This document shows positions 1-9,444 of a DNA stretch of 9,444 bases, piece by piece; the stretch's first letter is position 1, and every line of letters begins with the position of its first letter. The DNA lies in IMG/VR virus record IMGVR_UViG_2648501797_000003, positions 1-9,444 of that record, one strand, 5' to 3'. A program made the translations under genes and the position numbers. Origin of the DNA: a virus (taxonomy: Duplodnaviria > Heunggongvirae > Uroviricota > Caudoviricetes). The notes under the pieces were generated by a model. It worked only from the letters and a program-made list of their open reading frames with translations. It did no database searches and had not been told where the DNA came from.

Positions 1-783
1 CTAAATCATCGCAATGCCGTAATGCTGCCTGATGCGAAATGGTCGCCGGAAACTTAAAACAGAAGCGGAAGTCATCTGTGGTCTGCTCACGCCAGCGCAG
101 GACAACCTCGGGTTCTCAACCGCGCCGATAACCTGTTTCTCTTCTGCGCTTAACGCCACCCAGAATTCCTGATACTTAACAGTTCCAAGGCGTGCGGCAG
201 ACTCGCCTTTTGCGATCAGTTCCGGGCGGCGATCATCCGATTCATGCCCTACATGAACCTCTGTCGCACTCCCTTCAATGACACGTTCGGCTTCGTCCTG
301 ATCGAAGATGCCAGCAAACCCAAATGCGAGACGCGCACACTGGATCAGCGTCTTGTGACGAAGCATACGGGTAGGGTGGGACTGCCATGGCTGAGTGTTG
401 CGTTTGCACTCTCCCATGTACTCAGTAACGATGGTCGGGTGTGTGCGGTCTTTCCGGTATATCTTGCAGGTACACGCGCCTTCTTCCTTGTCGTAGGCAA
501 ACTCCATTCCATCAAACTGAGGATGTTCGTTGATGATTCGAGCCCAGCCGTCAACGCCGACTACAGGAACAATTCCACCTTTATCCGGGAATGCATAAAT
601 CTCTTTTGTCCACGGGTTCAGTCCGTACTGGTTGGCGACGATCAGCAGTGCCGTGAACTGCTCATCAGTGACATTCCCACCCTTAAATGCTGTATTTTTC
701 AGAGTGTTCATCAGGTCAGTTCCGGCATCCATGCCGAGGCGGGAGGCAAGCTTCCCGGCCATTGTAGAAAGTGCTGTGCTCAT
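1..783 (-). CDS. bet: Bet / Red-beta family single-strand annealing recombinase (260 aa)
   Basis: Translation from ATG at 783-781 (MSTALSTMAGKLASRLGMD...LLIVANQYGLNPWTKEIYAFPDK...VPVVGVDGW..RIINE..QFDGM...CTC.IYRKDR.HP...TE.M.EC.....PWQSHP.RMLRHK..IQCARLAFGFAGI.D.DEAER) is near-collinear with lambda Bet as I recall it. SD GAGGGG lies 6 nt upstream of this ATG. Stop TAG is at 3-1. The ORF-track start at 834 adds 17 residues with no homology and overlaps the upstream gene. Confidence 0.9.
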   Translation of the reverse strand: MSTALSTMAGKLASRLGMDAGTDLMNTLKNTAFKGGNVTDEQFTALLIVANQYGLNPWTKEIYAFPDKGGIVPVVGVDGWARIINEHPQFDGMEFAYDKEEGACTCKIYRKDRTHPTIVTEYMGECKRNTQPWQSHPTRMLRHKTLIQCARLAFGFAGIFDQDEAERVIEGSATEVHVGHESDDRRPELIAKGESAARLGTVKYQEFWVALSAEEKQVIGAVENPRLSCAGVSRPQMTSASVLSFRRPFRIRQHYGIAMI

Positions 784-799
784 AGAATTCCCCTCAAAG

Positions 800-1084
800 T
801 TAAAACGGGCAGCCGGTGCGGTGGTCCCAGTCATATTCCGCCTGGGCGTAAGCTACTGCCGAGATGAGATCGTTATATGCCTCGCCAGCTGCATCGCTGC
901 GGAGGCCTTCGTATGGGCTTTTGTCCATCGGCACAGAGAAGCGGAACAGGCCTGACGGCTCTTTCGGCAGGGCGTCGATAATTTCCTGCGCCCGATCGTC
1001 AATCCACTTTTGCTTCTCTTCGGTTAGCGACTGTTCAGCCCATTTCCTTTCTTCGATAGCGTCGTATGCGCGGTAGGCGTTCAT
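800..1084 (-). CDS. gam: Gam-like host-nuclease (RecBCD) inhibitor, 94 aa from ATG 1084 (GTG at 1090 also possible)
   Basis: N-terminus MNAYRAYDAIEERKWAEQ resembles lambda GamS MNAYYIQDRLEAQSWARHY; similar length (~95 aa), charged helical character, and position immediately upstream of bet as in lambda. Start sits 7 nt after the stop of the upstream gene with an SD-like GAGGUG spanning that stop. Homology is from memory. Confidence 0.6.
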   Translation of the reverse strand: MNAYRAYDAIEERKWAEQSLTEEKQKWIDDRAQEIIDALPKEPSGLFRFSVPMDKSPYEGLRSDAAGEAYNDLISAVAYAQAEYDWDHRTGCPF

Positions 1085-1091
1085 AAGCACC

Positions 1092-2063
1092 TCAGTAACT
1101 GATACCGGTATGGGGAATGCGGCCGTCTTTAACCGCTGTAAGCACCTCGATAGCCTGATCCCGAGTAAGGCTGGTATTGGCCAGAAGAGCTTTGACGATT
1201 TCAGTGCCTACAGCCTTGCGGTGCTTAACGTCGGCTTCGCGGCGAGCCTGCTCATCGGCTTTACGTTTCTCCTCAGCCAGGCGGGCCTGTTCGCGTTGCT
1301 CTGCCTCGCGGCGGATGCGATCGGCTTCTTCCTGAGCTTTGCGGCGCTCCGCTTCGATAGCGGCCTGCTTGTCAGCCTCAGCTTTCTTCTCGGCTGCAAT
1401 GCGATCTCGCTCTGCCTGCTCAGCTTGTGCTTTCAACACAGCTTCGCGATGCGCCGCTTCTTCACGTTCACGCGGTGCGCGCTGCTCAACTTCTCGGGCT
1501 GCTGCGGCGGCTGCCATTCGCTTAATTTCTTCTTCATGGGCAATGCGCTGGCGCTCAGCCTCAGCTGCTTTATCTGCCTGCTCTCGGTCGAAAGCGTCAT
1601 TCATCAGCATGGCCATTTCGTGGTCAGACTCAATCCGAGCTGCCAGCTGCCGATCGAACTCTTCATTCATGGCCAGTGCTTCGACGTGAAGGGCGTTCAT
1701 GGCTTCTTCGGCCTTAATGCGTTCCTGCTCCGCCTCCCATTCGGTCAACGGGCGACGCACTTCATCTTTCAGTGCATCGAGACGCTCACGGACAACGCGG
1801 CGGCTTTCATCAATCTGCTTTGGCAGCGCCTTCAGCTCAGCGACCAGGGCTTTACCTGCGTTGTCGATGTAGGTTTTAGAGCGCGCGACCTTGTGAGCCA
1901 TGGATGCGATAGCATCGCGGCCTTTTTTGGTGGTCACGTCCGGCACCAGACTGCGAGCCTCTTTTTCGATCGCTTCGATAAGCGGATCGAGTTGGTCGTT
2001 ATTGGTGAAAACCGCCATCGCGTTCTTTTTCTCGATGACGACTAAATCCATTATTTCGCTCAT
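1092..2063 (-). CDS. Hypothetical coiled-coil protein, 323 aa; structured N-terminal ~110 aa, then long Ala/Glu/Arg/Lys-rich low-complexity helical region
   Basis: Long ORF from ATG 2063-2061 with SD AGGGGA about 5 nt upstream; stop TGA at 1094-1092 directly abuts the gam-like start. Central region is repetitive (AEAERQRIA..., AAAAAARE..., KAQAEQAERDRIAAEKKAEADKQAAIEAERRKAQEEADRIRREAEQ). The antisense frames are open only because of this GC-rich repetitive coding. Family not recognised. Confidence 0.75.
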   Translation of the reverse strand: MSEIMDLVVIEKKNAMAVFTNNDQLDPLIEAIEKEARSLVPDVTTKKGRDAIASMAHKVARSKTYIDNAGKALVAELKALPKQIDESRRVVRERLDALKDEVRRPLTEWEAEQERIKAEEAMNALHVEALAMNEEFDRQLAARIESDHEMAMLMNDAFDREQADKAAEAERQRIAHEEEIKRMAAAAAAREVEQRAPREREEAAHREAVLKAQAEQAERDRIAAEKKAEADKQAAIEAERRKAQEEADRIRREAEQREQARLAEEKRKADEQARREADVKHRKAVGTEIVKALLANTSLTRDQAIEVLTAVKDGRIPHTGISY

Positions 2064-2312
2064 GGTTTCCCCTGAAATTTGGTTGTAAGAATCCCGGCAC
2101 CGTATTGGCTGCCTGATAGCTCAGTTAAATTCGTGCGCTGATATCCGGGTTTATATTGCCTGGGAGTCATTAATCAATCTGGCGTGGAGTGCGATTCGTG
2201 GCTAAATCCCCCGCCGAACGCAAAGCCGCGCAGGAGGTAAAGATCTGTTTGGCTGGAAGTGAGGGCGTGGTAATGTGTTTACCTATTCTTCATTTGCTTA
2301 GGTGGCGTGAAA
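2064..2312. promoter_or_regulatory. Divergent intergenic control region between the leftward recombination operon and the rightward small-ORF operon
   Basis: 249 bp non-coding between divergent gene starts (2063 minus, 2313 plus). Candidate leftward sigma70 promoter: -35 TTGATT (revcomp of 2172-2177), 16-nt spacer, -10 TATAAA (revcomp of 2150-2155). Short repeated motifs TTGSCTG (2105, 2156, 2249) and GGCGTG (2181, 2265, 2303). Promoter calls are by eye only. Confidence 0.35.
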
Positions 2313-2510
2313 ATGCTGTATACAGTGACGTTCAATGAGACAGAGCGGAAGGAAGATATTGAACTTAGCGCGGATGTCAGGGCGGGTGATTTGCTGTCAT
2401 TAACGCTCGATGGCGTGAAAGATGACTACACGGTGATGACAGTAGGCGGTCCTATCATTGGCAATACCTGTGTCCCATCAATAATCCGGGTAAAAAAAGC
2501 TCAGAAATAA
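2313..2510 (+). CDS. Hypothetical small acidic protein (65 aa from ATG 2313; ORF track starts at GTG 2307)
   Basis: ORF with SD AGGTGG (2300-2305) 7 nt upstream of ATG 2313; first gene of the rightward operon. No helix-turn-helix evident, so not obviously Cro-like. Confidence 0.5.
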   Translation: MLYTVTFNETERKEDIELSADVRAGDLLSLTLDGVKDDYTVMTVGGPIIGNTCVPSIIRVKKAQK

Positions 2511-2519
2511 TAATGTATA

Positions 2520-2546
2520 ATCCCCTCCACAGCAGAGGGGATTTTT
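2520..2546 (+). terminator. GC-rich hairpin with short U-tract (terminator-like) that sequesters the SD of the next gene
   Basis: 8-bp perfect stem ATCCCCTC / GAGGGGAT (2520-2527 with 2535-2542), 7-nt loop CACAGCA, then TTTT immediately followed by ATG 2547. The 3' arm contains the GAGGGG Shine-Dalgarno of the 2547 ORF. Confidence 0.45.
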
Positions 2547-2729
2547 ATGACAAACAAAAAAATGACACCTGCCGAAAAGCTCAAAGCTTCGCGGAAGCGG
2601 TATAAAAAAATCTGGCTTCAACTGGATATCGCTAACGCCAAGCGATTTGGCGAGAAAGAAGTGCTTTCCGTTGACACCTACAGATCGCCCTATGAAACGC
2701 GCAAGAAAAGAGGAAGGACAGCAGATTGA
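2547..2729 (+). CDS. Hypothetical small basic protein (60 aa), possibly nucleic-acid binding
   Basis: [42 protein letters not shown]...; Lys/Arg-rich; a beta-strand-then-helix pattern ([14 protein letters not shown]) is compatible with a ribbon-helix-helix fold, but this is a guess. Confidence 0.5.
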
Positions 2730-2989
2730 CAACATCATCCTGGAACATAGCAGCCAAATCGAAAGACGAGCAGGACAAAGTCAACGTTGACCTCGCCGCG
2801 TCCGGCGTCGCTTACAAAGAACGCCTGAACATGCCGGTTGTCGCCGAAGTGGTGGCCAGACAACAGCCTGAACACCTGCGGGACTACTTCATGGAGCGCG
2901 TCCGCTACTACCGCGAGCAGAGCATCCAGCTTCCCCGCGCATCCGATCCGCGCTATCTGGAAATGGCTGAGCAGAACGCCAAGAAATAG
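2726..2989 (+). CDS. Hypothetical protein (87 aa) with putative TTG start overlapping the upstream stop (TTGA)
   Basis: ORF in track; strong SD AGGAAGG (2711-2717) 8 nt upstream of TTG 2726; the first in-frame ATG (2831) has no SD. Confidence 0.45.
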
Positions 2990-3095
2990 CGATTTCCTCG
3001 CCTATGCTCATTTTGCTTTTATCCCCGGGAGGGGCGATAATTACTTAGTCAGTCTGGACAACTGACAACTTTACCCCGGCGCCAAGTGGGGACAC

Positions 3096-3563
3096 ATGGC
3101 GCAAACACTGCAATTTGAGAAAAGTTATCAAAACGTACTGATTCCCGCAGAGCCGGGAACCAGCGAATACCTGCAACTTATCCCCGTAGGGCAACTGCTT
3201 TGCGGTGAGTTCCGCAAGCCCAGGAATTACGCATTCCACAAGAAGTTCTTCAAACTTCTGACTCTCGGGTATCACTACTGGACGCCTTCCGGTGGTCTCA
3301 TTGAGCCCGCGGAGCGTACCCTCATATCCGGTTTTATCGACTTTCTCTCATCCGACCTCGATCAGCGCGCTGCACTCCAGAACGCCGCGGAGATGTATCT
3401 CTCCTCGGTCGGTATATCCCGTTCCCGCGATATGGCGCTGCTGAAACACTTCGAATCCTTCCGCGAGTGGGCAACCATTCAGGCTGGCTTTTATGACGAA
3501 TACCAGATGCCTGACGGCAGCCGTCGTCGTGTCGCAAAGTCGATCTCCTTTCTGGCTCGATGA
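3096..3563 (+). CDS. Hypothetical protein (155 aa), nin-region-like position
   Basis: ORF with ATG 3096 preceded by GTGGGGA. Sequence feels like a conserved enterobacterial prophage protein of unknown function (possibly a DUF-type family), but I cannot name it reliably. Confidence 0.6.
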   Translation: MAQTLQFEKSYQNVLIPAEPGTSEYLQLIPVGQLLCGEFRKPRNYAFHKKFFKLLTLGYHYWTPSGGLIEPAERTLISGFIDFLSSDLDQRAALQNAAEMYLSSVGISRSRDMALLKHFESFREWATIQAGFYDEYQMPDGSRRRVAKSISFLAR

Positions 3564-3650
3564 CCAGCAGGTTGACTACTACAGCGTGAAGAGAATGCCT
3601 GTCGTCAAAGGTGGGCGGCTTGAGCTAACCATTACCGAAATGGAGTCCGC

Positions 3651-3791
3651 ATGAGCCGTGACGTTATCGAACGCATCCGCGACCGCTGGCAAAAGCTTCG
3701 CCTCCTGCGTAGCCGCGGCACCGTGCTGGTCGACTACAAAATATTACGCAATTTCGTCCGTATCTATAAGCGCCTGGGAGAAGCAGCATGA
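3651..3791 (+). CDS. Hypothetical small Arg-rich protein (46 aa), below the ORF-track length cutoff
   Basis: ATG 3651 with SD GGAG (3642-3645) 5 nt upstream; translation MSRDVIERIRDRWQKLRLLRSRGTVLVDYKILRNFVRIYKRLGEAA; its stop TGA (3789-3791) overlaps ATG 3788 of the next gene (ATGA coupling). Confidence 0.35.
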   Translation: MSRDVIERIRDRWQKLRLLRSRGTVLVDYKILRNFVRIYKRLGEAA

Positions 3792-4477
3792 CAGCTCAAT
3801 ACTTGGAATTTGTTCGCCAGCAGCTGATAGTGGCCACCGCCGATCTGAGTGGTGCGACGAAAGGGCAACTGGTAGCTCTTGCAGAGAACGCGCAATTTAC
3901 CGCTACGGCGCGCAGCCGTGGCCGGAAGAAGGTGTATAGCGAGGTGAAGCAAAAAATGGTTAACCCGGATGGACCGCCGATGAGCGGCAGCCAGTCCCGC
4001 GCTAAGGGTTCCTCAATCGCTCTCGTTCTGCCCGTTGAATACTCGACAGCCAGCTGGCGTCGCGCCCTCCTGTCGCTGGAAGACCACCAGAAATCCTGGT
4101 TGCTGTGGAACTACAGCGACAATATCCGCTGGGAGCACCAGGAGACGATAACCCGCTGGGCATGGGAGCAATTCAGCGACAAGCTGGCCGGTGTGCGCAT
4201 TGCAAAGAAAACAGTCGATCGCCTCCGTCAACTTATCTGGCTGGCCGCACAGGACGTCAAAGCCGAGCTGGCAGGACGGGAGACGTATGAATACCAGTCG
4301 CTGGCGGAGCTGGTTGGTGTAGCAAAGTCCACATGGACAGAAACCTACCTCCCTCATTGGCTGGCGCTGCGCAGCAGTTTTGTGAAGCTTGATAGCGACG
4401 CTCTCATGGCGGTAACGCGATCACGTTCACAACAAAAGGCGTCAAATTTAGATGTAAGTCTTGCAAAACCGAACTGA
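3788..4477 (+). CDS. Hypothetical protein (229 aa); candidate late-gene regulator (Q-like by position only)
   Basis: ORF with SD GGGAG 7 nt upstream. It is the last early gene, immediately upstream of a promoter-terminator-tRNA arrangement like lambdoid Q-pR'-tR'. It has no cysteines, so it is not a lambda-Q-type zinc-finger protein. The functional call is inference. Confidence 0.55.
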   Translation: MTAQYLEFVRQQLIVATADLSGATKGQLVALAENAQFTATARSRGRKKVYSEVKQKMVNPDGPPMSGSQSRAKGSSIALVLPVEYSTASWRRALLSLEDHQKSWLLWNYSDNIRWEHQETITRWAWEQFSDKLAGVRIAKKTVDRLRQLIWLAAQDVKAELAGRETYEYQSLAELVGVAKSTWTETYLPHWLALRSSFVKLDSDALMAVTRSRSQQKASNLDVSLAKPN

Positions 4478-4489
4478 AAGGCATATATT
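4461..4489 (+). promoter_or_regulatory. Candidate sigma70 promoter (pR'-like late promoter)
   Basis: -35 TTGCAA (4461-4466), 17-nt spacer, -10 TATATT (4484-4489), overlapping the stop codon of the 229-aa gene; predicted start near 4496, about 50 nt upstream of the terminator hairpin. Confidence 0.35.
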
Positions 4490-4544
4490 TCATGTAAATC
4501 TGATATCGTCGCCATAGCTTCGATTGTCGACACATAAAGAATTC

Positions 4545-4578
4545 AAGCCCGAGGTTAACGCCTTGGGCTTTTTCATTT
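4545..4578 (+). terminator. Intrinsic terminator (tR'-like)
   Basis: 10-bp stem AAGCCCGAGG / CCTTGGGCTT (one G-U pair), 6-nt loop TTAACG, followed by TTTCATTT. Confidence 0.6.
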
Positions 4579-4580
4579 CA

Positions 4581-4655
4581 GGGTCAGAAGCACAGCGGTT
4601 GTGCGTTCGGCTGTTAACCGAATGGTAGAAGGTTCGAATCCTTCCTGTCCCGCCA
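4581..4655 (+). tRNA. tRNA-Asn (anticodon GUU)-like gene, 75 nt including encoded CCA
   Basis: Hand-folded cloverleaf: acceptor 4581-4587 with 4645-4651 (6 bp plus one T-T mismatch), D-stem GCAC/GTGC, anticodon stem TTCGG/CCGAA with loop CTGTTAA (anticodon GTT at 4613-4615), 5-nt variable loop, T-stem GAAGG/CCTTC with canonical T-loop TTCGAAT, discriminator G, CCA. Non-canonical A at position 8. Confidence 0.6.
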
Positions 4656-4661
4656 AATAAT

Positions 4662-4732
4662 GGCCTGACCTGATGACGGGCTCATAATCCAATCCATCAG
4701 GGGCGCTGCTGCAACAGCGTCACAGGCCGCCA
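4662..4732 (+). other. Degenerate tRNA-like remnant (possible decayed tRNA with CAU-type anticodon loop motif)
   Basis: GGCCTGA (4662-4668) pairs with ACAGGCC (4722-4728) and is followed by G-CCA. Inside are a 7-bp hairpin (4669-4675 with 4695-4701) whose loop contains CTCATAA, and a 5-bp hairpin CGCTG/CAGCG (4704-4719). No D-arm and no canonical T-loop. Confidence 0.25.
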
Positions 4733-4789
4733 GACCAAGCCTGGGTATTTTCGGTCATCACCGACATTGCTATTACCCTCATGCTTATT

Positions 4790-4818
4790 GCCTGCCTAAC
4801 CGCAGGCTTTTTTATTTT
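4790..4818 (+). terminator. Intrinsic terminator
   Basis: 6-bp stem GCCTGC / GCAGGC, 6-nt loop, followed by TTTTTTATTTT. Confidence 0.6.
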
Positions 4819-4920
4819 CAGGGTCGCGGGAATCACCCTCGACGCTTTGTTGGTAAATCAGCCCGACGGCCCTGACCTTCTCACACACAGCTTCCCGATC
4901 TTTCATCGGAGGCGGTAACT

Positions 4921-5340
4921 ATGGCTAAGCGTATGCAAGACAAAGAGAGCATTGCCGGGATGTCCTGGCTGGTTCTGCTGATCATTGCTGGTTGGGGCGG
5001 CCTTGTCCGATTCCTGATGGATGTAAAGCAGGGCAAAGCAAAATGGAGCTGGATAAATGCTTTTGCGCAGATTGTGGTTTCGGCTTTTACCGGGGTTATT
5101 GGTGGGCTCATCAGCATTGAAGGTGGCCTGAGTATTTACATGATACTGGCCACTGCCGGTGACCAGGTTAACAGCGAGCTATGGTGGGCGATTCAGAACG
5201 GTTATATGACGGTTAAAGCCGCAGGGGTTCGTGTCCGTGAAATAGAGACCGTCAGTGATGGTTATCAGTTTTTTGGCTTCGATATCGAAAATGACTATAT
5301 CGCTGGCTTCGACCGCGGGTCATGGGGAGAGAGATTTTAA
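4921..5340 (+). CDS. Holin-like small membrane protein (139 aa) with dual-start motif
   Basis: SD GGAGG (4908-4912) 8 nt upstream of ATG 4921. N-terminus M-A-K-R-M (Met1 and Met5 separated by Lys-Arg); hydrophobic helices around residues 11-33 and 43-79; charged C-terminal region. First gene after the late promoter/tRNA region, where lambdoid holins sit. Confidence 0.6.
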   Translation: MAKRMQDKESIAGMSWLVLLIIAGWGGLVRFLMDVKQGKAKWSWINAFAQIVVSAFTGVIGGLISIEGGLSIYMILATAGDQVNSELWWAIQNGYMTVKAAGVRVREIETVSDGYQFFGFDIENDYIAGFDRGSWGERF

Positions 5341-6221
5341 TGGCGACTAACGATTTTAAACCCTTCGCTACTGGTAGCGGGGCAAACGTATTATCACAAG
5401 CTGATTATGACGCACTGTCGGCCAGAACAACTGGCTTTTTAAGTGGCAAAGCGTCTTCGGCCCAGGTCAACAAAGCTTTAAGGCAGGCATCAACTATTGC
5501 GGCGGTTGTGGCGCAGTTTATTTCTGATAACAGCGGCGATGACACCCTTGATAACGGTAATTTACCTACCTTACTGGCTAGTCTCGAAAGCGCCCTCCTC
5601 AAGTCCTCCCCTGGGCGGTTACAGAATATCGTTAGCTTTACCGCAAATGGGACCTACACCCCATCGCCAGGAACCAAACATGTAAAAGTTATTGTTACTG
5701 GCGGTGGTGGCGGTGGTGGTGGTTGTCAGGGAACTTCAGGATCTGAATCAGTTTCAGGTGGCGGCGGCGGTGCTGGTGGTACGGCCATTGGTTATTTTGC
5801 TGTAACTGAATCCAGCTATGCAGTCACTGTAGGTGCTGGTGGTTCTGCTGGCGTTGGTGCTGTCCAGGGTGGAACAGGCGGAACCTCAATCATTAACGGC
5901 ATTAGCGGATTGGGCGGAGATGGTGGTCAGAAATCAGGGATCACTACGCTGGCTGGTGGGAAAGGCGGTATTTCTATTGGTGGCTCGGTTAACCTTCCCG
6001 GAGGTTACGGCACTGATGGGCAAAATGGCTCCCTGATTATCCCCGGCAATGGCGGCTCGTCATATTGGGGCGGCGGTGGTCGTGGGGGCGCACGCGGGGG
6101 CGTGGCAGGGGATTGTTATGGTGCCGGTGGTGGTGGCGCATATGATGCTGCCATGTCTGGCAACTCCTACAATGGCGGACAGGGGAAAGCAGGGATTGTA
6201 TATATTGAGGAATATTCTTAA
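5340..6221 (+). CDS. Glycine-rich protein (293 aa from ATG 5340), tail-fibre/adhesin-like
   Basis: ATG 5340 overlaps the upstream stop (TAATG) with GGGGAGAGAG upstream; the ORF-track start at 5322 lies inside the upstream gene. N-terminal ~110 aa ordinary composition (MATNDFKPFATGSGANVLSQADYDAL...), then polyglycine tracts (G8, G5, GGxGG) separated by short variable segments. Family not identified. Confidence 0.7.
   Translation: MATNDFKPFATGSGANVLSQADYDALSARTTGFLSGKASSAQVNKALRQASTIAAVVAQFISDNSGDDTLDNGNLPTLLASLESALLKSSPGRLQNIVSFTANGTYTPSPGTKHVKVIVTGGGGGGGGCQGTSGSESVSGGGGGAGGTAIGYFAVTESSYAVTVGAGGSAGVGAVQGGTGGTSIINGISGLGGDGGQKSGITTLAGGKGGISIGGSVNLPGGYGTDGQNGSLIIPGNGGSSYWGGGGRGGARGGVAGDCYGAGGGGAYDAAMSGNSYNGGQGKAGIVYIEEYS
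5700..5723 (+). repeat. In-frame trinucleotide simple-sequence repeat (GGY)8 encoding Gly8
   Basis: GGC GGT GGT GGC GGT GGT GGT GGT read directly from the sequence, within the Gly-rich CDS. Confidence 0.8.
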
Positions 6222-6391
6222 TGGTAAGCAAGTATGCAGTCCTGAAAGAATGCGTGGTAGAAAACATTATTGTTGCTGATGATAATTACTCTCCTGATGA
6301 TTTCGAAGTCGTAAAATATAGCGACGAAACATTTTGCCAGCCAGGCATGTTGTACAATAAAGAGGATGGTTTATTTTATGATGATAAATAA
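6221..6391 (+). CDS. Hypothetical small protein (56 aa), translationally coupled to the Gly-rich gene
   Basis: ATG 6221 overlaps stop TAA 6219-6221 (TAATG); translation MVSKYAVLKECVVENIIVADDNYSPDDFEVVKYSDETFCQPGMLYNKEDGLFYDDK. Below the ORF-track cutoff. Could be a short chaperone or a fragment of a tail-fibre assembly protein; unproven. Confidence 0.35.
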   Translation: MVSKYAVLKECVVENIIVADDNYSPDDFEVVKYSDETFCQPGMLYNKEDGLFYDDK

Positions 6392-6438
6392 TCATCAAGA
6401 ATAAATAACATTATCTACATATCTACACATTACCAATC

Positions 6439-6463
6439 AACCGGCTTATGCCGGTTTTTTATT
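6439..6463 (+). terminator. Strong intrinsic terminator directly abutting the start of the 694-aa gene
   Basis: 7-bp stem AACCGGC / GCCGGTT, 4-nt loop TTAT, followed by TTTTTTATT; ATG of the next gene at 6473. Confidence 0.7.
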
Positions 6464-6472
6464 GGGGCGACC

Positions 6473-8557
6473 ATGAGTGAATACGATACCGGCAATCCTG
6501 TGCCGTCTGCATCAATACCTGATGCATGGGATAATATGCAGTCTATTGACAGGTTCGCTAATAGTAGTGATGAAACTATTACCACGCGTACAGGTAAGCA
6601 GTTAGACACTCTGCATGGCATCAATGTAAAGTCTGATAACCAACTTAATGAACAACAAGATACCTTTGAATTATCTCAATCCGAAAGGGAATCCTCTTTC
6701 GAAGAAAAATCAAATGAATTTGAATCGCGCTTCTCCTCTCAGTTATCGGCGCAGGAATCAACATTTTCAGAATCTCAATCTGATAAAGAAAACCGCTTTC
6801 AGCAGTTCCTGAATACTTCAGGATACGTGTTCCTTGGCGATTATCAGGACGGCCCATTCCAGTTTAGTGCCCGTAACCAGTACATCCGTTACGGCAATGA
6901 GTATTACCGCCTGAATGCTGCTACTGACGTCGGCTTTACGACCACCGGAACCGATGCGACCAGCTTTGCGAACGACGTTACTCACTTCGTTCTGATGGAT
7001 GGTGATACGCTTCGCCAAGACCTGGGTTCAGGCGAAGGAGCAATGAAGGTTTACCGGAACGCCTCACCTCTGGCCAGAATCATTCGCTCCTCGATTTTTG
7101 AATACCTTACTGAAGCTGATCAGCAGGCGTTGCTCACAATTCCTGGCGTTAATGTTATCGCTGACTACGCGTTAAAAAAAGCTATAGCTGATGGAGTGAT
7201 GGTACTGGATATTCCGTGGAATGTCGGTGCGTTAAATTTCGGGCTTGACCCCGCAATGCTTCCATTAGGTTTTCAATTTATAGGGTGGGGTTGCCGACGC
7301 CCATATACAATTGATGACGATAACAGTTTTCTGAATTGCGGAGTCGTCATCCGCGTAGCTGCTGGTGCAAGTTTTCCATTTTATTCAACAGGCAGGCATG
7401 TATTCCGGGATATTGTTTTTGATGGCCGAGATAAAACAACGTACCTTTTTTATTCGCCAAATACTGCAACCCAGTTCAACGGCACCCGACTTGAGGGGTG
7501 TGGATTTTATCGGTTTGCGATCGGGATTGGCTGGGCTTCAGGAGGAACAGCCAGGTACATCGGAACAATGAAAGCATATTTCTGCTCAATATCCGGAAAC
7601 GGGGATGGAGTCAGGAATTTAATAGACTCCATGATGTTTGGTTGCACAATCAATGCTAATGATCGAGGAGTGGCCCTTACCGGTGGGGCAAACAATAACT
7701 TTTTTGGAGGATGCCGGAACGAATGGAACACCGGCGATAACTGGTATGCGTACCAGTCGGTGGAGAACCAGATTTTCGGCGAACTGTGCGACAGGGCCGG
7801 AAGGGGAGGTGTGGTCGCCGGGGCGAAATCCTCATGGATTTTAAACGGCGTTAACGTCCGGCGCAGTGGTGCTAATCAACCCGTGGGTAATGACTATTCC
7901 GCAAACTTTATTATTATTGATGACGGTAAAATTGAACTCTCAGGGGTAAGAACTGGTGTCGGTGCGAATGACAGCGGTGACGGAGGGACAATCTCGCCAT
8001 CCTACAACGTATCAGCTCTTGGCTCTGGCGGGGGGACCTTGCAGGTTTCCGGAAGTGACATGACTGGTTTTGTTACTTCAGCAATTAACCAGAAGGCGAC
8101 CACGTTAAATAAGTCGATAACCGGCAACCTTGGTATGGACGACGATGTAAATATTGGTATGACCCAGGTTGTTAAAGGCAGGCGAATTATTGGTTCACAG
8201 TCATCAGGTACGTTAGCAGGCTCTGCGGGCGCAACGTTATCGCTGACCAAGACCAACATATTCCAGAATTATTTCGATACATATATTACCCGTTCAATCC
8301 TAATTGAATGTCGAATTGGTAGCCAGTCATTTGGTGACGATATTAAAATTCCCGTCAGATTCAGAAGGGAGAATCTTTATTATCTGGATATCCTGACCTC
8401 GGGAATTGTTGCCAGCTCTGCACGCATTGGGCTTTCAGGGACTGGCGTAACGGTATCATTGTCCATTAACAGCTCAACCGGTCTGGTTACTGTTCAGTTG
8501 ACAAATGTTGATGGTCTGGAAAGAACCGTTAATGTATCAATGTTGCCCTCAATGTAG
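6473..8557 (+). CDS. Tail-fibre / tailspike-like protein (694 aa); probable receptor-binding protein with beta-helix-like body
   Basis: Long ORF. N-terminal acidic Ser/Glu/Phe repeats with roughly 11-residue spacing of Phe (TFELSQSERESSFEEKSNEFESRFSSQLSAQESTFSESQSDKENRF), typical of fibre coiled-coils; central and C-terminal Gly/Asn/Ser/Thr-rich stretches resembling beta-helix tailspike proteins. No specific family confirmed. Confidence 0.7.
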   Translation: MSEYDTGNPVPSASIPDAWDNMQSIDRFANSSDETITTRTGKQLDTLHGINVKSDNQLNEQQDTFELSQSERESSFEEKSNEFESRFSSQLSAQESTFSESQSDKENRFQQFLNTSGYVFLGDYQDGPFQFSARNQYIRYGNEYYRLNAATDVGFTTTGTDATSFANDVTHFVLMDGDTLRQDLGSGEGAMKVYRNASPLARIIRSSIFEYLTEADQQALLTIPGVNVIADYALKKAIADGVMVLDIPWNVGALNFGLDPAMLPLGFQFIGWGCRRPYTIDDDNSFLNCGVVIRVAAGASFPFYSTGRHVFRDIVFDGRDKTTYLFYSPNTATQFNGTRLEGCGFYRFAIGIGWASGGTARYIGTMKAYFCSISGNGDGVRNLIDSMMFGCTINANDRGVALTGGANNNFFGGCRNEWNTGDNWYAYQSVENQIFGELCDRAGRGGVVAGAKSSWILNGVNVRRSGANQPVGNDYSANFIIIDDGKIELSGVRTGVGANDSGDGGTISPSYNVSALGSGGGTLQVSGSDMTGFVTSAINQKATTLNKSITGNLGMDDDVNIGMTQVVKGRRIIGSQSSGTLAGSAGATLSLTKTNIFQNYFDTYITRSILIECRIGSQSFGDDIKIPVRFRRENLYYLDILTSGIVASSARIGLSGTGVTVSLSINSSTGLVTVQLTNVDGLERTVNVSMLPSM

Positions 8558-8565
8558 GAGTGAAA

Positions 8566-8745
8566 ATGGAAGACGAAACAGAACTGACCGAACCGCCATT
8601 TGAAACCTGGTTCAGAGACGTGGTTGAACTGGTTAAAAATGGCGGACATTCAATGGATATTGTTGCCTATAAGGGGGAATGGGTTGATTATTTTTCGGAA
8701 GGATTAACACCAGAAGATGCGTTTATAAAAAGAATGGCTCTTTAA
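8566..8745 (+). CDS. Hypothetical small acidic protein (59 aa from ATG 8566)
   Basis: SD AGGAG (8556-8560) overlaps the stop of the 694-aa gene, 5 nt upstream of ATG 8566; very acidic (MEDETELTEPPFETWFRDVVELV...). Confidence 0.5.
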   Translation: MEDETELTEPPFETWFRDVVELVKNGGHSMDIVAYKGEWVDYFSEGLTPEDAFIKRMAL

Positions 8746-8858
8746 ATAACCGACCGAAAATAAATGTCAGGGAGTAACGTATTGATAATTTTCGACAAAA
8801 CGGCAGAGCATAGTGAAAACCGCCTGTGGATGATGGCCAACATGGGGAGGATTCTGTA

Positions 8859-9176
8859 ATGGGCTTTCCATCACCCGCGACGGATTACACGGAACAGCGA
8901 TTAACGGTTAACTCGATCTGCAATGTCGGTCCAAATACGCGCCTCTTCGAGCAATCTGGCGGTTACGTTGTGCTGGATGTCTCCCTGAAACCAAAGCAGG
9001 CCAGTCAGGTTCTGATCCAGCACGGCGGCGGGACGGAGCTTGCCACGCTGAGAGGAAGGTCGCTGATTACCGAAGATGGTGAAGCGATCGAGGGCGAGGC
9101 CCTGGACGATGTTACTGTCATCGGTGTAGTGACGTTTACTATCTGCGATGTGCGCCAGGACAATGCGGTTGTTTAG
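8859..9176 (+). CDS. UmuD'-like protein lacking the N-terminal pro-peptide (HumD-like; 105 aa)
   Basis: SD GGAGG (8846-8850) 8 nt upstream of ATG 8859. N-terminus MGFPSPATDYTEQRLTVNSIC matches the UmuD segment GFPSPAADYVEQRIDLNQLL that begins at the Cys24-Gly25 self-cleavage site (13 of 20 identical by my recall). C-terminal TVIGVVTFTI resembles UmuD DVFGVVIHVV. No GDSM serine motif seen and no umuC-like ORF downstream. Confidence 0.65.
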   Translation: MGFPSPATDYTEQRLTVNSICNVGPNTRLFEQSGGYVVLDVSLKPKQASQVLIQHGGGTELATLRGRSLITEDGEAIEGEALDDVTVIGVVTFTICDVRQDNAVV

Positions 9177-9339
9177 TTGCAGTCAATTGATGGAAGATTT
9201 CGCGTGGCAGGCGTCTTGGGGCATGGGTGGGGCATGAGAAATCAGTGAATTTCGCCAAACATTGCAAACAACGTATGTTGGATGCTATCTCCAGCCATTA
9301 AAAATGGCGCTCCTGGACGATATTTGTCGATTTTTAAAT

Positions 9340-9444
9340 TTACCGCGTCACGCAGTTAAAGTGGCGGGCATACTCTTCAAGGCTGGTGATCCCCAACCGC
9401 ACCCATTTAGGATGCGACCATTGCGGTAGACCGATGTAAATCAT
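9340..9444 (-). pseudogene. 5' fragment (34 codons plus stop) of a DUF72 / YecE-like host gene, apparently interrupted
   Basis: Minus-strand translation from ATG at 9444-9442: MIYIGLPQWSHPKWVRLGITSLEEYARHFNCV then TR-stop. This matches my recollection of the E. coli YecE (DUF72) N-terminus, which should continue EGNTT...; divergence begins near 9348. Identification from memory. Confidence 0.45.

Follow-up and report, generated by a model that had tools for sequence, protein, structure and literature searches.

A UmuD′-Like Gene at the Right Edge of a Prophage Remnant

The 9,444-nucleotide stretch of viral DNA analyzed here (positions 1 to 9,444 of IMG/VR record IMGVR_UViG_2648501797_000003, hereafter "the window") is a deletion remnant of a prophage of Escherichia coli. 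Close to its right end, an open reading frame (ORF) on the plus strand (8859-9176, stop codon included) encodes a UmuD′-like protein of 105 amino acids (WP_025270004.1; PHROG 3469), which is the subject of this study. Its ATG is preceded, with a spacer of 8 nt, by the Shine-Dalgarno (SD) sequence GGAGG (8846-8850, plus strand), whose bases were conserved in an alignment of 72 distinct upstream regions as well as in the Klebsiella prophage L011 and in the E. coli phage mEp390. The SD sequence lies within the last codons of a gene remnant (8794-8859, plus strand) that tblastn and DNA alignment identified as codons 58-78 of a small gene, here called the partner, which normally precedes the UmuD′-like gene. 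The TAA stop codon of this remnant overlaps the ATG of the UmuD′-like gene as TAATG.

An earlier reading of the same DNA, made from its letters only (hereafter the original prediction), had described the gene as a naturally pre-truncated UmuD′ homolog that sits alone, without umuC, at the edge of the element. The edge position was confirmed. The prophage/host junction lies approximately 115-170 nt past the end of the gene, and in 80 IMG/VR contigs the gene was located at or near a contig end, so that the edge position is a family-wide feature. Absence of umuC was confirmed by tblastn, which detected no umuC similarity anywhere in the window (best E-value 1.6). The description of the gene as alone held for umuC, but not for the preceding 21 codons (8794-8856), which are a remnant of the usual partner; the gene is thus alone only secondarily, through loss of most of that partner.

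The Encoded Protein Starts at the UmuD Cleavage Site and Lacks the Catalytic Dyad

The N-terminus of the product of the 8859-9176 ORF reads MGFPSPATDYTEQRL. In a phmmer alignment, residues 2-43 matched residues 25-66 of UmuD. Residue 2 therefore corresponds to Gly25 of the Cys24/Gly25 cleavage site and the protein begins there, in agreement with the original prediction that it starts at the residue where UmuD is converted to UmuD′. The codons for GFPSPATDYTE, the N-terminal arm (8862-8894, plus strand), specify what is, after Met removal, the new N-terminus G25-E35 of UmuD′. As an initiator Met in front of Gly is, by the general rule for methionine aminopeptidase, removed, the mature N-terminus would equal that of UmuD′. 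Residue conservation was counted over 37 members of the family of short UmuD′-like proteins to which the window's protein belongs (hereafter the short family). The arm GFPSPAxDYxE was the most conserved segment, with G in 35, F in 35, S in 36, P in 35, D in 33, and E in 32 members. Since no cleavage occurs in the short family, this conservation argues for a function that is specific to the UmuD′ state.

Similarity to UmuD′ extended over the whole protein. A family profile aligned with UmuD residues 25-137 (E 2.5e-10), and an hhalign comparison with HumD of phage P1, gp26 of phage N15, and UmuD spanned the protein from end to end (105 columns) at 99.1% probability (E 4e-19). The 105-amino-acid protein showed the LexA/UmuD-type β-barrel fold, its top structural match was UmuD′, and it retained the UmuD′ arm, the β-barrel core, and the C-terminal strand. 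The last of these and a helix equivalent to UmuD 40-44 represent retained elements of the dimer interface. The possibility, raised along with the original prediction, that similarity was confined to a short N-terminal motif on an unrelated fold was ruled out by these end-to-end alignments.

Two segments of UmuD are missing. At codons 35-36 (G/Y; 8961-8966, plus strand), an 11-residue deletion has taken out UmuD G58-D68, the Ser60 loop included. Three alignments, among them the hhalign alignment and a profile alignment against UmuD from the PDB, placed the gap at this site, and the deletion was common to every member of the short family. It explains why the Ser (GDSM) motif had not been found in the original prediction. 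The column equivalent to Lys97 was occupied by R (11), K (10), T (8), or V (4) among the 37 members, with T in the window's protein. With Ser60 deleted and the Lys column not conserved, the alignments indicate that the Ser-Lys dyad is absent and that the protein cannot be an S24 protease. A second shortening of the short family relative to HumD and UmuD was located around UmuD residues 100-113.

In the structure of the RecA*-UmuD complex, F26 and P29 of UmuD contact RecA (PMC9926225). The equivalents of these two residues were almost invariant in the short family. At the C-terminus, 31 of the 37 members displayed a tail of acidic residues, Pro, and one or two hydrophobic residues (mostly DDxxP[VTA]I), which is also found in HumD (EFDDCPVI) and gp26 and which UmuD lacks; the clade of the window's protein ends in QDNAVV, without Pro. 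The tail of HumD and the short family is loosely similar to the C-terminal tip of SSB (DDDIPF).

A Catalogued, Uncharacterized Family under Purifying Selection

The protein matched PHROG 3469, annotated as "UmuD-like protein," with an E-value of 5.2e-46 (residues 1-103 to profile positions 1-103 of 106). No Pfam match was found at E ≤ 10, Peptidase_S24 (PF00717) included. The best curated match was the NCBIfam family HumD (NF051876; E 9e-10, residues 1-101 to profile positions 1-121 of 129). Phage P1 HumD, the precedent named in the original prediction, was thus the right one, although this full-length match remained below the cut-off of the family. PRK10276 aligned with residues 2-43 only and scored 29.1 bits, where its cut-off is 110.

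A search of 5.8 billion proteins yielded 791 close homologs, nearly all of 105 amino acids and predominantly from Klebsiella, under the names "hypothetical protein," "S24/S26 family peptidase," "UV protection protein," and "UmuD-like protein"; the peptidase name was given to some copies by PGAP (the NCBI genome annotation). The 90% cluster to which the window's protein belongs comprised 2058 member sequences. At the 50% identity level, 189 representatives were found, mostly of 100-110 amino acids, and their alignments nearly always began at residue 1. Among the phages carrying the gene were mEp390 (mEp390_026), phiES15, and Klebsiella, Enterobacter, Erwinia, and Pantoea phages, while matches of lower identity extended to the HumD-type proteins of N15, HK140, and HK639. 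Among 62 distinct alleles, the median pairwise dN/dS was 0.10, which indicates purifying selection. In a diverse set of 80 species-representative genomes across Enterobacteriaceae and Erwiniaceae, the MGFPSPA start was present at 66 loci.

The short family has, therefore, already been catalogued (PHROG 3469) but is uncharacterized, and it is common in prophages of Klebsiella and other enterobacteria. Literature searches returned no paper on the family or on its 79-amino-acid partner. PADLOC gave no match for the UmuD′-like protein, the partner, or the neighboring small ORFs, so that nothing ties any of these to known defense systems.

A deviating architecture (P0170) was encountered on two contigs only. 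On Logan contig SRR32251491_36046 (L090:2958-3383), an orphan gene of 141 amino acids without an adjacent umuC combined a UmuD-like uncleaved arm (FIRPAELREI...LFSDSMQC|GFTSPAADYVE) with a short-family body from which the Ser loop was missing. An ORF starting with MSSTLREASK just downstream of this gene was presumed to be acnA. P0170 is either a recombinant of host umuD with the phage gene or an uncleaved, ancestor-like form.

Relatives Carry a LexA-Controlled Operon with a Predicted Winged-Helix Partner

In an operon survey, the 330 nt upstream of the gene were aligned, which yielded the 72 distinct versions mentioned above. In most of these, a canonical LexA box, TACTGTATATAAAAACAGTA, preceded an SD sequence and the small partner ORF, whose stop codon overlaps the ATG of the UmuD′-like gene as TAATG. 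The partner, of 79 amino acids, is predicted to be a winged-helix protein (PHROG 3893); it had no match in Pfam, NCBIfam, or the PDB, and no DinI match. In L011, a typical intact Klebsiella prophage, the order is tail fiber, Tad2-like small ORF, LexA box, partner (3765-4001; 78 codons, against 79 in most loci), UmuD′-like gene (4001-4318), attP, int, and xis. Because it lies between the tail-fiber genes and attP, the operon is located at the right edge of the integrated prophage. Other partner loci are L006:2768-2998 (mEp390) and L005:2759-3001. Phage mEp390 carries the same module, with the partner missing from the annotation of the record and with a DinI-like gene transcribed divergently from the module's LexA box, and the LexA-box/partner/UmuD′-like module is also held by Erwinia phage Midgardsormr38. 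In records from Erwinia, Pantoea, Enterobacter, and Salmonella, PGAP calls the partner "DNA polymerase V," without visible support.

Among the 80 IMG/VR loci, 73 had a full-length partner and approximately 60 had a CTG-N10-CAG box about 20 nt ahead of its start. In the diverse set, a canonical CTGT-N8-ACAG box was found within 450 nt upstream at 66 of 80 loci and a partner was detectable at 55, while at least 10 of the 80 had the box directly before the UmuD′-like gene, without a partner, as in HumD and N15. The partner is thus a conserved and previously undescribed member of a LexA-controlled operon. Since a LexA box is present in approximately three-quarters of the relatives, transcription is under SOS control and it is only the post-translational cleavage step that is bypassed. 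The suggestion in the original prediction that the protein could act without needing induction was therefore incorrect for the family; it is the window's copy that has lost the box.

Two side observations concern this region. In about eight IMG/VR loci (L012, L013, L027, L055, L060, L079, L080, and L083), the LexA-box region is replaced by a GC-rich sequence, GGGGTATCCGGTAACGGGTATCCCTACCGCGAC, approximately 60 nt before the partner start, and this replacement is a second route to loss of the SOS operator of the module. The small ORF at L011:3070-3291 gave a borderline Tad2-like match to a Thoeris anti-defense family (PF11195; 25.5 bits, cut-off 25); its counterpart by position in the window is the small ORF at 8566-8745.

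The pairing of a winged-helix protein with an S24-like protein might be read as a split LexA/CI-type regulator, or as an SOS-controlled antirepressor of prophage induction that resembles the LexA-controlled antirepressor operons at some prophage ends. LexA and CI dimerize through their S24 domains, LexA controls the operon, which adjoins attP, and UmuDAb with DdrR provides a case of a UmuD homolog that turned regulator with a small co-factor. However, the repressor of mEp390 has HTH_3 and Peptidase_S24 domains and is, therefore, directly cleavable without an antirepressor. The UmuD′-like protein is highly conserved across many mosaic phages and has the same arm as host UmuD′, as would be expected for a conserved target in the host and not for a phage-specific repressor. 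Furthermore, many family members lack the partner and some are coupled to umuC. These observations make a split regulator or antirepressor very improbable. A wider proposal, in which the LexA-controlled pair is a two-component SOS effector instead of a Pol V subunit, acting either as a split LexA/CI-like regulator or as a decoy for UmuD, UmuD′, or RecA* that reprograms mutagenesis and the timing of induction, is considered unlikely. If it applied, copies without box and partner, such as that in the window, would deliver the S24 half without SOS control.

Recombination in the Window Removed the Operator and Most of the Partner

A tblastn search with the Klebsiella partner matched window positions 8794-8856 to partner residues 58-78 with 86% identity (E 2e-8). 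What remains as a reading frame is an ORF of 31 codons, MSGSNVLIIFDKTAEHSENRLWMMANMGRIL, with an ATG at 8764 and TAATG at its end (8764-8859, plus strand). In DNA alignments, homology with L011 and mEp390 began at approximately 8791. The recombination breakpoint was thus located at 8785-8795, with the UmuD′-like module of Klebsiella prophages on its right and a different tail-fiber cassette on its left. As judged from these alignments, recombination at about 8791 has cost the module its LexA box, its promoter, and 57 of the 78 codons of the partner.

This event accounts for the absence of a LexA box from the window. No CTGT-N8-ACAG site was found near the gene, even when one mismatch was allowed, which bears out the by-eye result of the original prediction. 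A search of the whole window gave five sites with one mismatch, none of them near the gene, a number at chance level (15 of 200 shuffled sequences reached five). A scan for promoters and terminators over 8300-9444 yielded one weak site inside the tail-fiber gene and no terminator, and within 8350-9444 no convincing promoter-like or terminator-like site was found. The pair TTGATA/CATAGT in the junction was considered by eye as a candidate promoter and was rejected, as the two elements are 21 nt apart, which is too far. The only evident source of read-through transcription consists of the tail-fiber gene (6473-8557, plus strand; ORF list and annotation), which forms the left flank of the junction, and the small ORF 3′ of it (8566-8745, plus strand), for which no Pfam match and only a weak match to PHROG 519 were obtained. 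As no terminator separates the tail-fiber genes from the UmuD′-like gene, late read-through is plausible.

These features raise the question whether the window's copy is a silent relic that is intact only because the recombination event was recent, an explanation that would be compatible with the role in translesion synthesis proposed below for the protein. Loss of the LexA box at the breakpoint, the lack of a promoter-like site within 8350-9444, and the setting in a degraded prophage of 9.4 kb are as expected for such a relic. However, the ORF is intact, as are its SD sequence and its TAATG coupling with the 31-codon ORF, and the plausibility of late read-through and the at least 10 family loci without a partner gene likewise speak against silence. 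A further argument against it came from complete E. coli genomes, of which 85 held the full module and approximately 59 held the truncated type, which matched only from position 245 of a 629-nt module query; some genomes held both, and the truncated arrangement was also found in intact prophages (e.g., L001). Allele comparisons were in favor of a relic. In L009, L023, and L046, the 500 nt upstream were 99-100% identical, while the alleles of the gene differed by approximately 10%, which indicates that divergence was imported by recombination, with the gene as a recombination joint between modules, and did not accumulate during long persistence after truncation. For the same reason, comparison of these alleles says nothing on selection after truncation. 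Altogether, the silent-relic explanation is regarded as a tentative possibility.

Genomic Links to UmuC Polymerases

A polymerase gene within 5 kb was found at 2 of the 80 IMG/VR loci and at 2 of the 80 diverse genome loci. In Enterobacter hormaechei B56 (L167:4969-6577), a LexA box and an SD sequence are followed by the gene for a short-family protein of 101 amino acids, whose stop codon overlaps the start of an intact umuC homolog that is 85% identical to E. coli UmuC. The 101-amino-acid protein has the same Ser-loop deletion and a DDNPVM tail, lacks the GFPSPA arm, and belongs to a 90% cluster of 391 members, mainly from the E. cloacae complex. E. coli A14 (L172:7042-8615), which also has chromosomal umuDC, carries the same short protein/umuC pair where the right end of a prophage adjoins yciB. 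To judge from this gene arrangement, the pair in B56 and A14 looks like a DNA polymerase V (Pol V)-type operon with a born-truncated, protease-dead accessory subunit. At the same yciB site, E. coli D9 (L173:4091-6933) carries a fusion of the first approximately 11 codons of the partner to a short-family body, together with a SRAP (SOS-response-associated peptidase) gene and a full-length umuD-like gene that has retained GDSM and Lys and is accompanied by a Y-family polymerase. In a metagenome-assembled genome (L154), the partner is followed by a frameshifted short-family gene that abuts the last 33 codons of umuC. In these arrangements, operon context connects the short-family body with UmuC-type polymerases. 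They also suggest that the right ends of such prophages, where mEp390 has its DinI-like gene, are a hotspot for cargo related to SOS and translesion synthesis.

The complete umuD-like and Y-family polymerase operon at the prophage end in D9 and the 3′ end of umuC in L154 could be taken to mean that the gene in the window is what a full-length umuD-umuC operon has left behind after decay in place. Over evolutionary time, the family may indeed descend from phage-borne Pol V operons. For the window this explanation was rejected, since tblastn searches with UmuD, its first 40 residues, and UmuC found only the ORF itself. No remnant of the UmuD N-terminal arm was detected in any upstream frame, in-frame stop codons are present at 8817-8822, the remnant upstream belongs to a different gene, and the frameshifted umuD-umuC remnant raised as an alternative to the original prediction was thereby ruled out. 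In addition, the family-wide MGFPSPA start and the purifying selection show that the truncation is old and selected and not the result of local decay. In-place decay is accordingly an extremely unlikely explanation.

In E. coli, the host nearly always offers a UmuC, as umuDC was present in 5366 of 5426 genomes. K. pneumoniae UmuD has been purified and used in cleavage assays (PMC13076628), and this species thus encodes UmuD.

Proposed Role as a Pre-Activated UmuD′ Surrogate

The reading that we favor, at a probability of roughly 0.55, is that the product of the window gene resembles HumD and serves a UmuC polymerase as a pre-activated substitute for UmuD′. It is based on the homology with HumD, the near-invariant arm, the genomic slot shared by gp26 and mEp390_026, and the umuC-coupled branch. 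According to this proposal, the protein is synthesized directly in the post-cleavage form, with GFPSPA as its expected N-terminus after Met removal, and has lost the catalytic machinery, for which it would have no more need. In the normal layout, LexA represses a two-gene operon for the 79-amino-acid predicted winged-helix protein and, next, the UmuD′-like protein, and DNA damage would lead to its derepression. We infer that the UmuD′-like protein would then dimerize and join a UmuC-type polymerase, either that of the host or a phage-borne one, for Pol V-like translesion synthesis of damaged phage or host DNA. The slow, RecA*-dependent cleavage of UmuD would be skipped, as it is for P1 HumD. 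In the window, recombination in the tail-fiber module has deleted LexA box and promoter along with most of the partner gene; the link with LexA would be gone and the intact ORF would be transcribed only by read-through from the tail/late region or from a weak, unrecognized promoter.

Several observations weigh against a surrogate role. HumD and gp26 match Pfam Peptidase_S24, whereas the short family does not, and on the HumD-family profile the window's protein scores 38.6 bits, far under the cut-off of 120 bits, where HumD scores 221 and gp26 204 bits. Position 54, a RecA*-contact site given as L54 in PMC9926225 but Val in UmuD of K-12, is Glu in 27 of the 37 members, and the UmuD RecA*-contact residues D91/E93 are not conserved. 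The umuC-coupled branch lacks the GFPSPA arm, and arm-bearing orphans such as the one studied here may therefore work differently. The partner has no counterpart in the umuDC, mucAB, or humD systems, which hints at an additional or different activity. Without a recognizable promoter, the window's copy may be poorly expressed or silent.

Another explanation is that the protein is a modulator of SOS and Pol V and not a subunit. By forming heterodimers with host UmuD or UmuD′, or by occupying the RecA* groove, it might, jointly with the partner where there is one, adjust or prevent the assembly of Pol V or the cleavage of UmuD, LexA, or repressor, much as DinI, PsiB, or the small binders of S24-family regulators do. 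Such a role would fit a protein that has its catalytic loop deleted and its dimer-interface elements retained, with the RecA-contact residues F26 and P29 almost invariant. The DinI-like gene that diverges from the same LexA box in mEp390, and precedents of small S24-binding proteins (DdrR with UmuDAb, GIL01 gp7 with LexA), point in the same direction, and presence of the short body alongside a complete umuD-umuC-like operon in D9 indicates that the two types are not simply redundant. However, loss of the residues for the RecA* L2 pocket and the acidic patch of UmuD (Glu at 54; D91/E93) would also affect a modulator. In one branch, the short-family gene and an intact umuC are translationally coupled and the operon contains no second umuD-like gene, which a subunit explains better than an inhibitor does. 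HumD, the closest characterized relative, promotes mutagenesis and does not block it. A modulator is for these reasons considered doubtful, and the UmuD′ surrogate remains the preferred explanation.

Composition of the Prophage Remnant

The window was 100% identical to a prophage remnant of E. coli strain B18271, and three further complete genomes held the same remnant. Its insertion site is yecE (a DUF72 gene), which adjoins yecD. On the left, a fusion links the 3′ part of yecE to bet, with the annotated DUF72 coding sequence reaching 100 nt into the window. The left part continues with bet, gamL, a coiled-coil gene, a homolog of the Pol III theta subunit, DUF1367, ylcG, and Q, with a tRNA-Asn (GTT) gene (4581-4655, plus strand) just 3′ of the Q antiterminator gene. 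At approximately 5160, a truncated holin is joined to a fragment of a DUF2612 baseplate gene, and the stretch from lysis to baseplate is gone. A gene for a glycine-rich protein lies between this fusion and the tail fiber. To the right of the UmuD′-like gene, the attR side (9177-9444) consists of phage DNA common with Klebsiella phages, the duplicated core, and a 5′ fragment of yecE, the host gene that the insertion disrupted (9349-9444, minus strand), with yecD next to it beyond the window; records of Stx phages label 9290-9444 as "duplication due to insertion." According to the annotation, the remnant lacks int, xis, and the immunity, replication, lysis, head, and most tail genes. Strain ST361 harbors a myovirus-like prophage that is intact and shares this right end. 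At a coverage of at least 80%, the right end was found in 61 of 5426 complete E. coli genomes.

The Pol III theta homolog is encoded at 2726-2989 (plus strand; PHROG 1105, E 9e-39). In phage P1, hot, which also encodes a theta homolog, is located approximately 750 bp upstream of humD. Both elements thus encode a mimic of a replisome subunit as well as a mimic of UmuD′.

Comparison with Known Systems

Pre-cleaved phage homologs of UmuD′ have been known since P1 HumD and N15 gp26 and, as such, the basic idea is not new. What the short family adds is a natural minimal UmuD′ of 105 amino acids, in which the loop is deleted and the GFPSPAxDYxE arm is almost invariant. This design separates the requirements of UmuD′ action from those of UmuD cleavage. 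If the short protein complements umuD, a minimal accessory subunit of Pol V would be defined; to our knowledge, no structure resolves the UmuD′-UmuC interface of Pol V. As Klebsiella pneumoniae and other clinical Enterobacteriaceae carry the family very commonly, an effect on SOS mutagenesis, if any, would matter for the evolution of resistance in lysogens. The window itself holds an intact but promoter-less copy of this catalogued phage gene in a degraded prophage.

P1 HumD (L007:27585-27974) resembles the short family in its MGFPSPA start, the absence of the 24-residue N-terminal arm, an S24-like fold with end-to-end homology, the absence of an adjacent polymerase gene, control by LexA (for the short family, in relatives), and the acidic-Pro-hydrophobic C-terminal tail shared with most short-family members. 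HumD differs in its length (129 against 105 amino acids), in retaining Asp-Ser and Lys at the dyad positions where the short family lacks the Ser loop, and in having its LexA box directly upstream, without a partner gene. Complementation of UmuD′ by HumD is reportedly the title finding of a 1999 paper by McLenigan et al. According to the P1 record, HumD complements UmuD′ function and promotes mutagenesis; in contrast to the uncharacterized short family, HumD has been studied experimentally.

N15 gp26 (L004:3001-3387) is likewise pre-truncated and occupies the same slot, directly after cor and the tail-fiber genes, as mEp390_026. A LexA box, CTGTATAAAAAAACAG, is located 16 nt before the start of N15 gene 26; P1 humD has a LexA box as well. 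It differs from the short family in being HumD-type, with 128 amino acids, in having the loop present as Ala-Thr (Thr for Ser) with the Lys retained, and in lacking a partner gene. From E. coli UmuD′ (PDB 1UMU, 1AY9, and 1I4V), the short protein differs in that it is not made by cleavage, has no Ser60/Lys97 dyad, carries deletions of 11 and approximately 14 residues, and has changed RecA*-contact residues. Most short-family members, furthermore, have an extra C-terminal tail, and the gene in the window is not encoded with umuC. Within PHROG 3469 (mEp390_026, phiES15, and Klebsiella and Erwinia phages), of which it is a member, the window's gene differs from the majority in its lack of a LexA box and of a full partner, of which only codons 58-78 are left.

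The mobile Pol V operons umuDC, mucAB, rumAB, and impCAB are, like the family's module, SOS-controlled and carried on mobile elements as mutagenesis modules; impCAB reportedly shares a small ORF ahead of the UmuD homolog, and the sister branch of the short family is, like these operons, coupled to a umuC homolog. In contrast to the mobile Pol V operons, the locus in the window is devoid of a polymerase gene, the small protein encoded upstream, for which no DinI match was obtained, is predicted to be of the winged-helix type, and the UmuD′-like protein is unable to cleave itself and has no need to. Finally, the arrangement of UmuDAb and DdrR in Acinetobacter, a UmuD-family gene beside a small (approximately 80 amino acids), lineage-specific partner gene, resembles that of the UmuD′-like gene and its partner in relatives of the prophage studied here.

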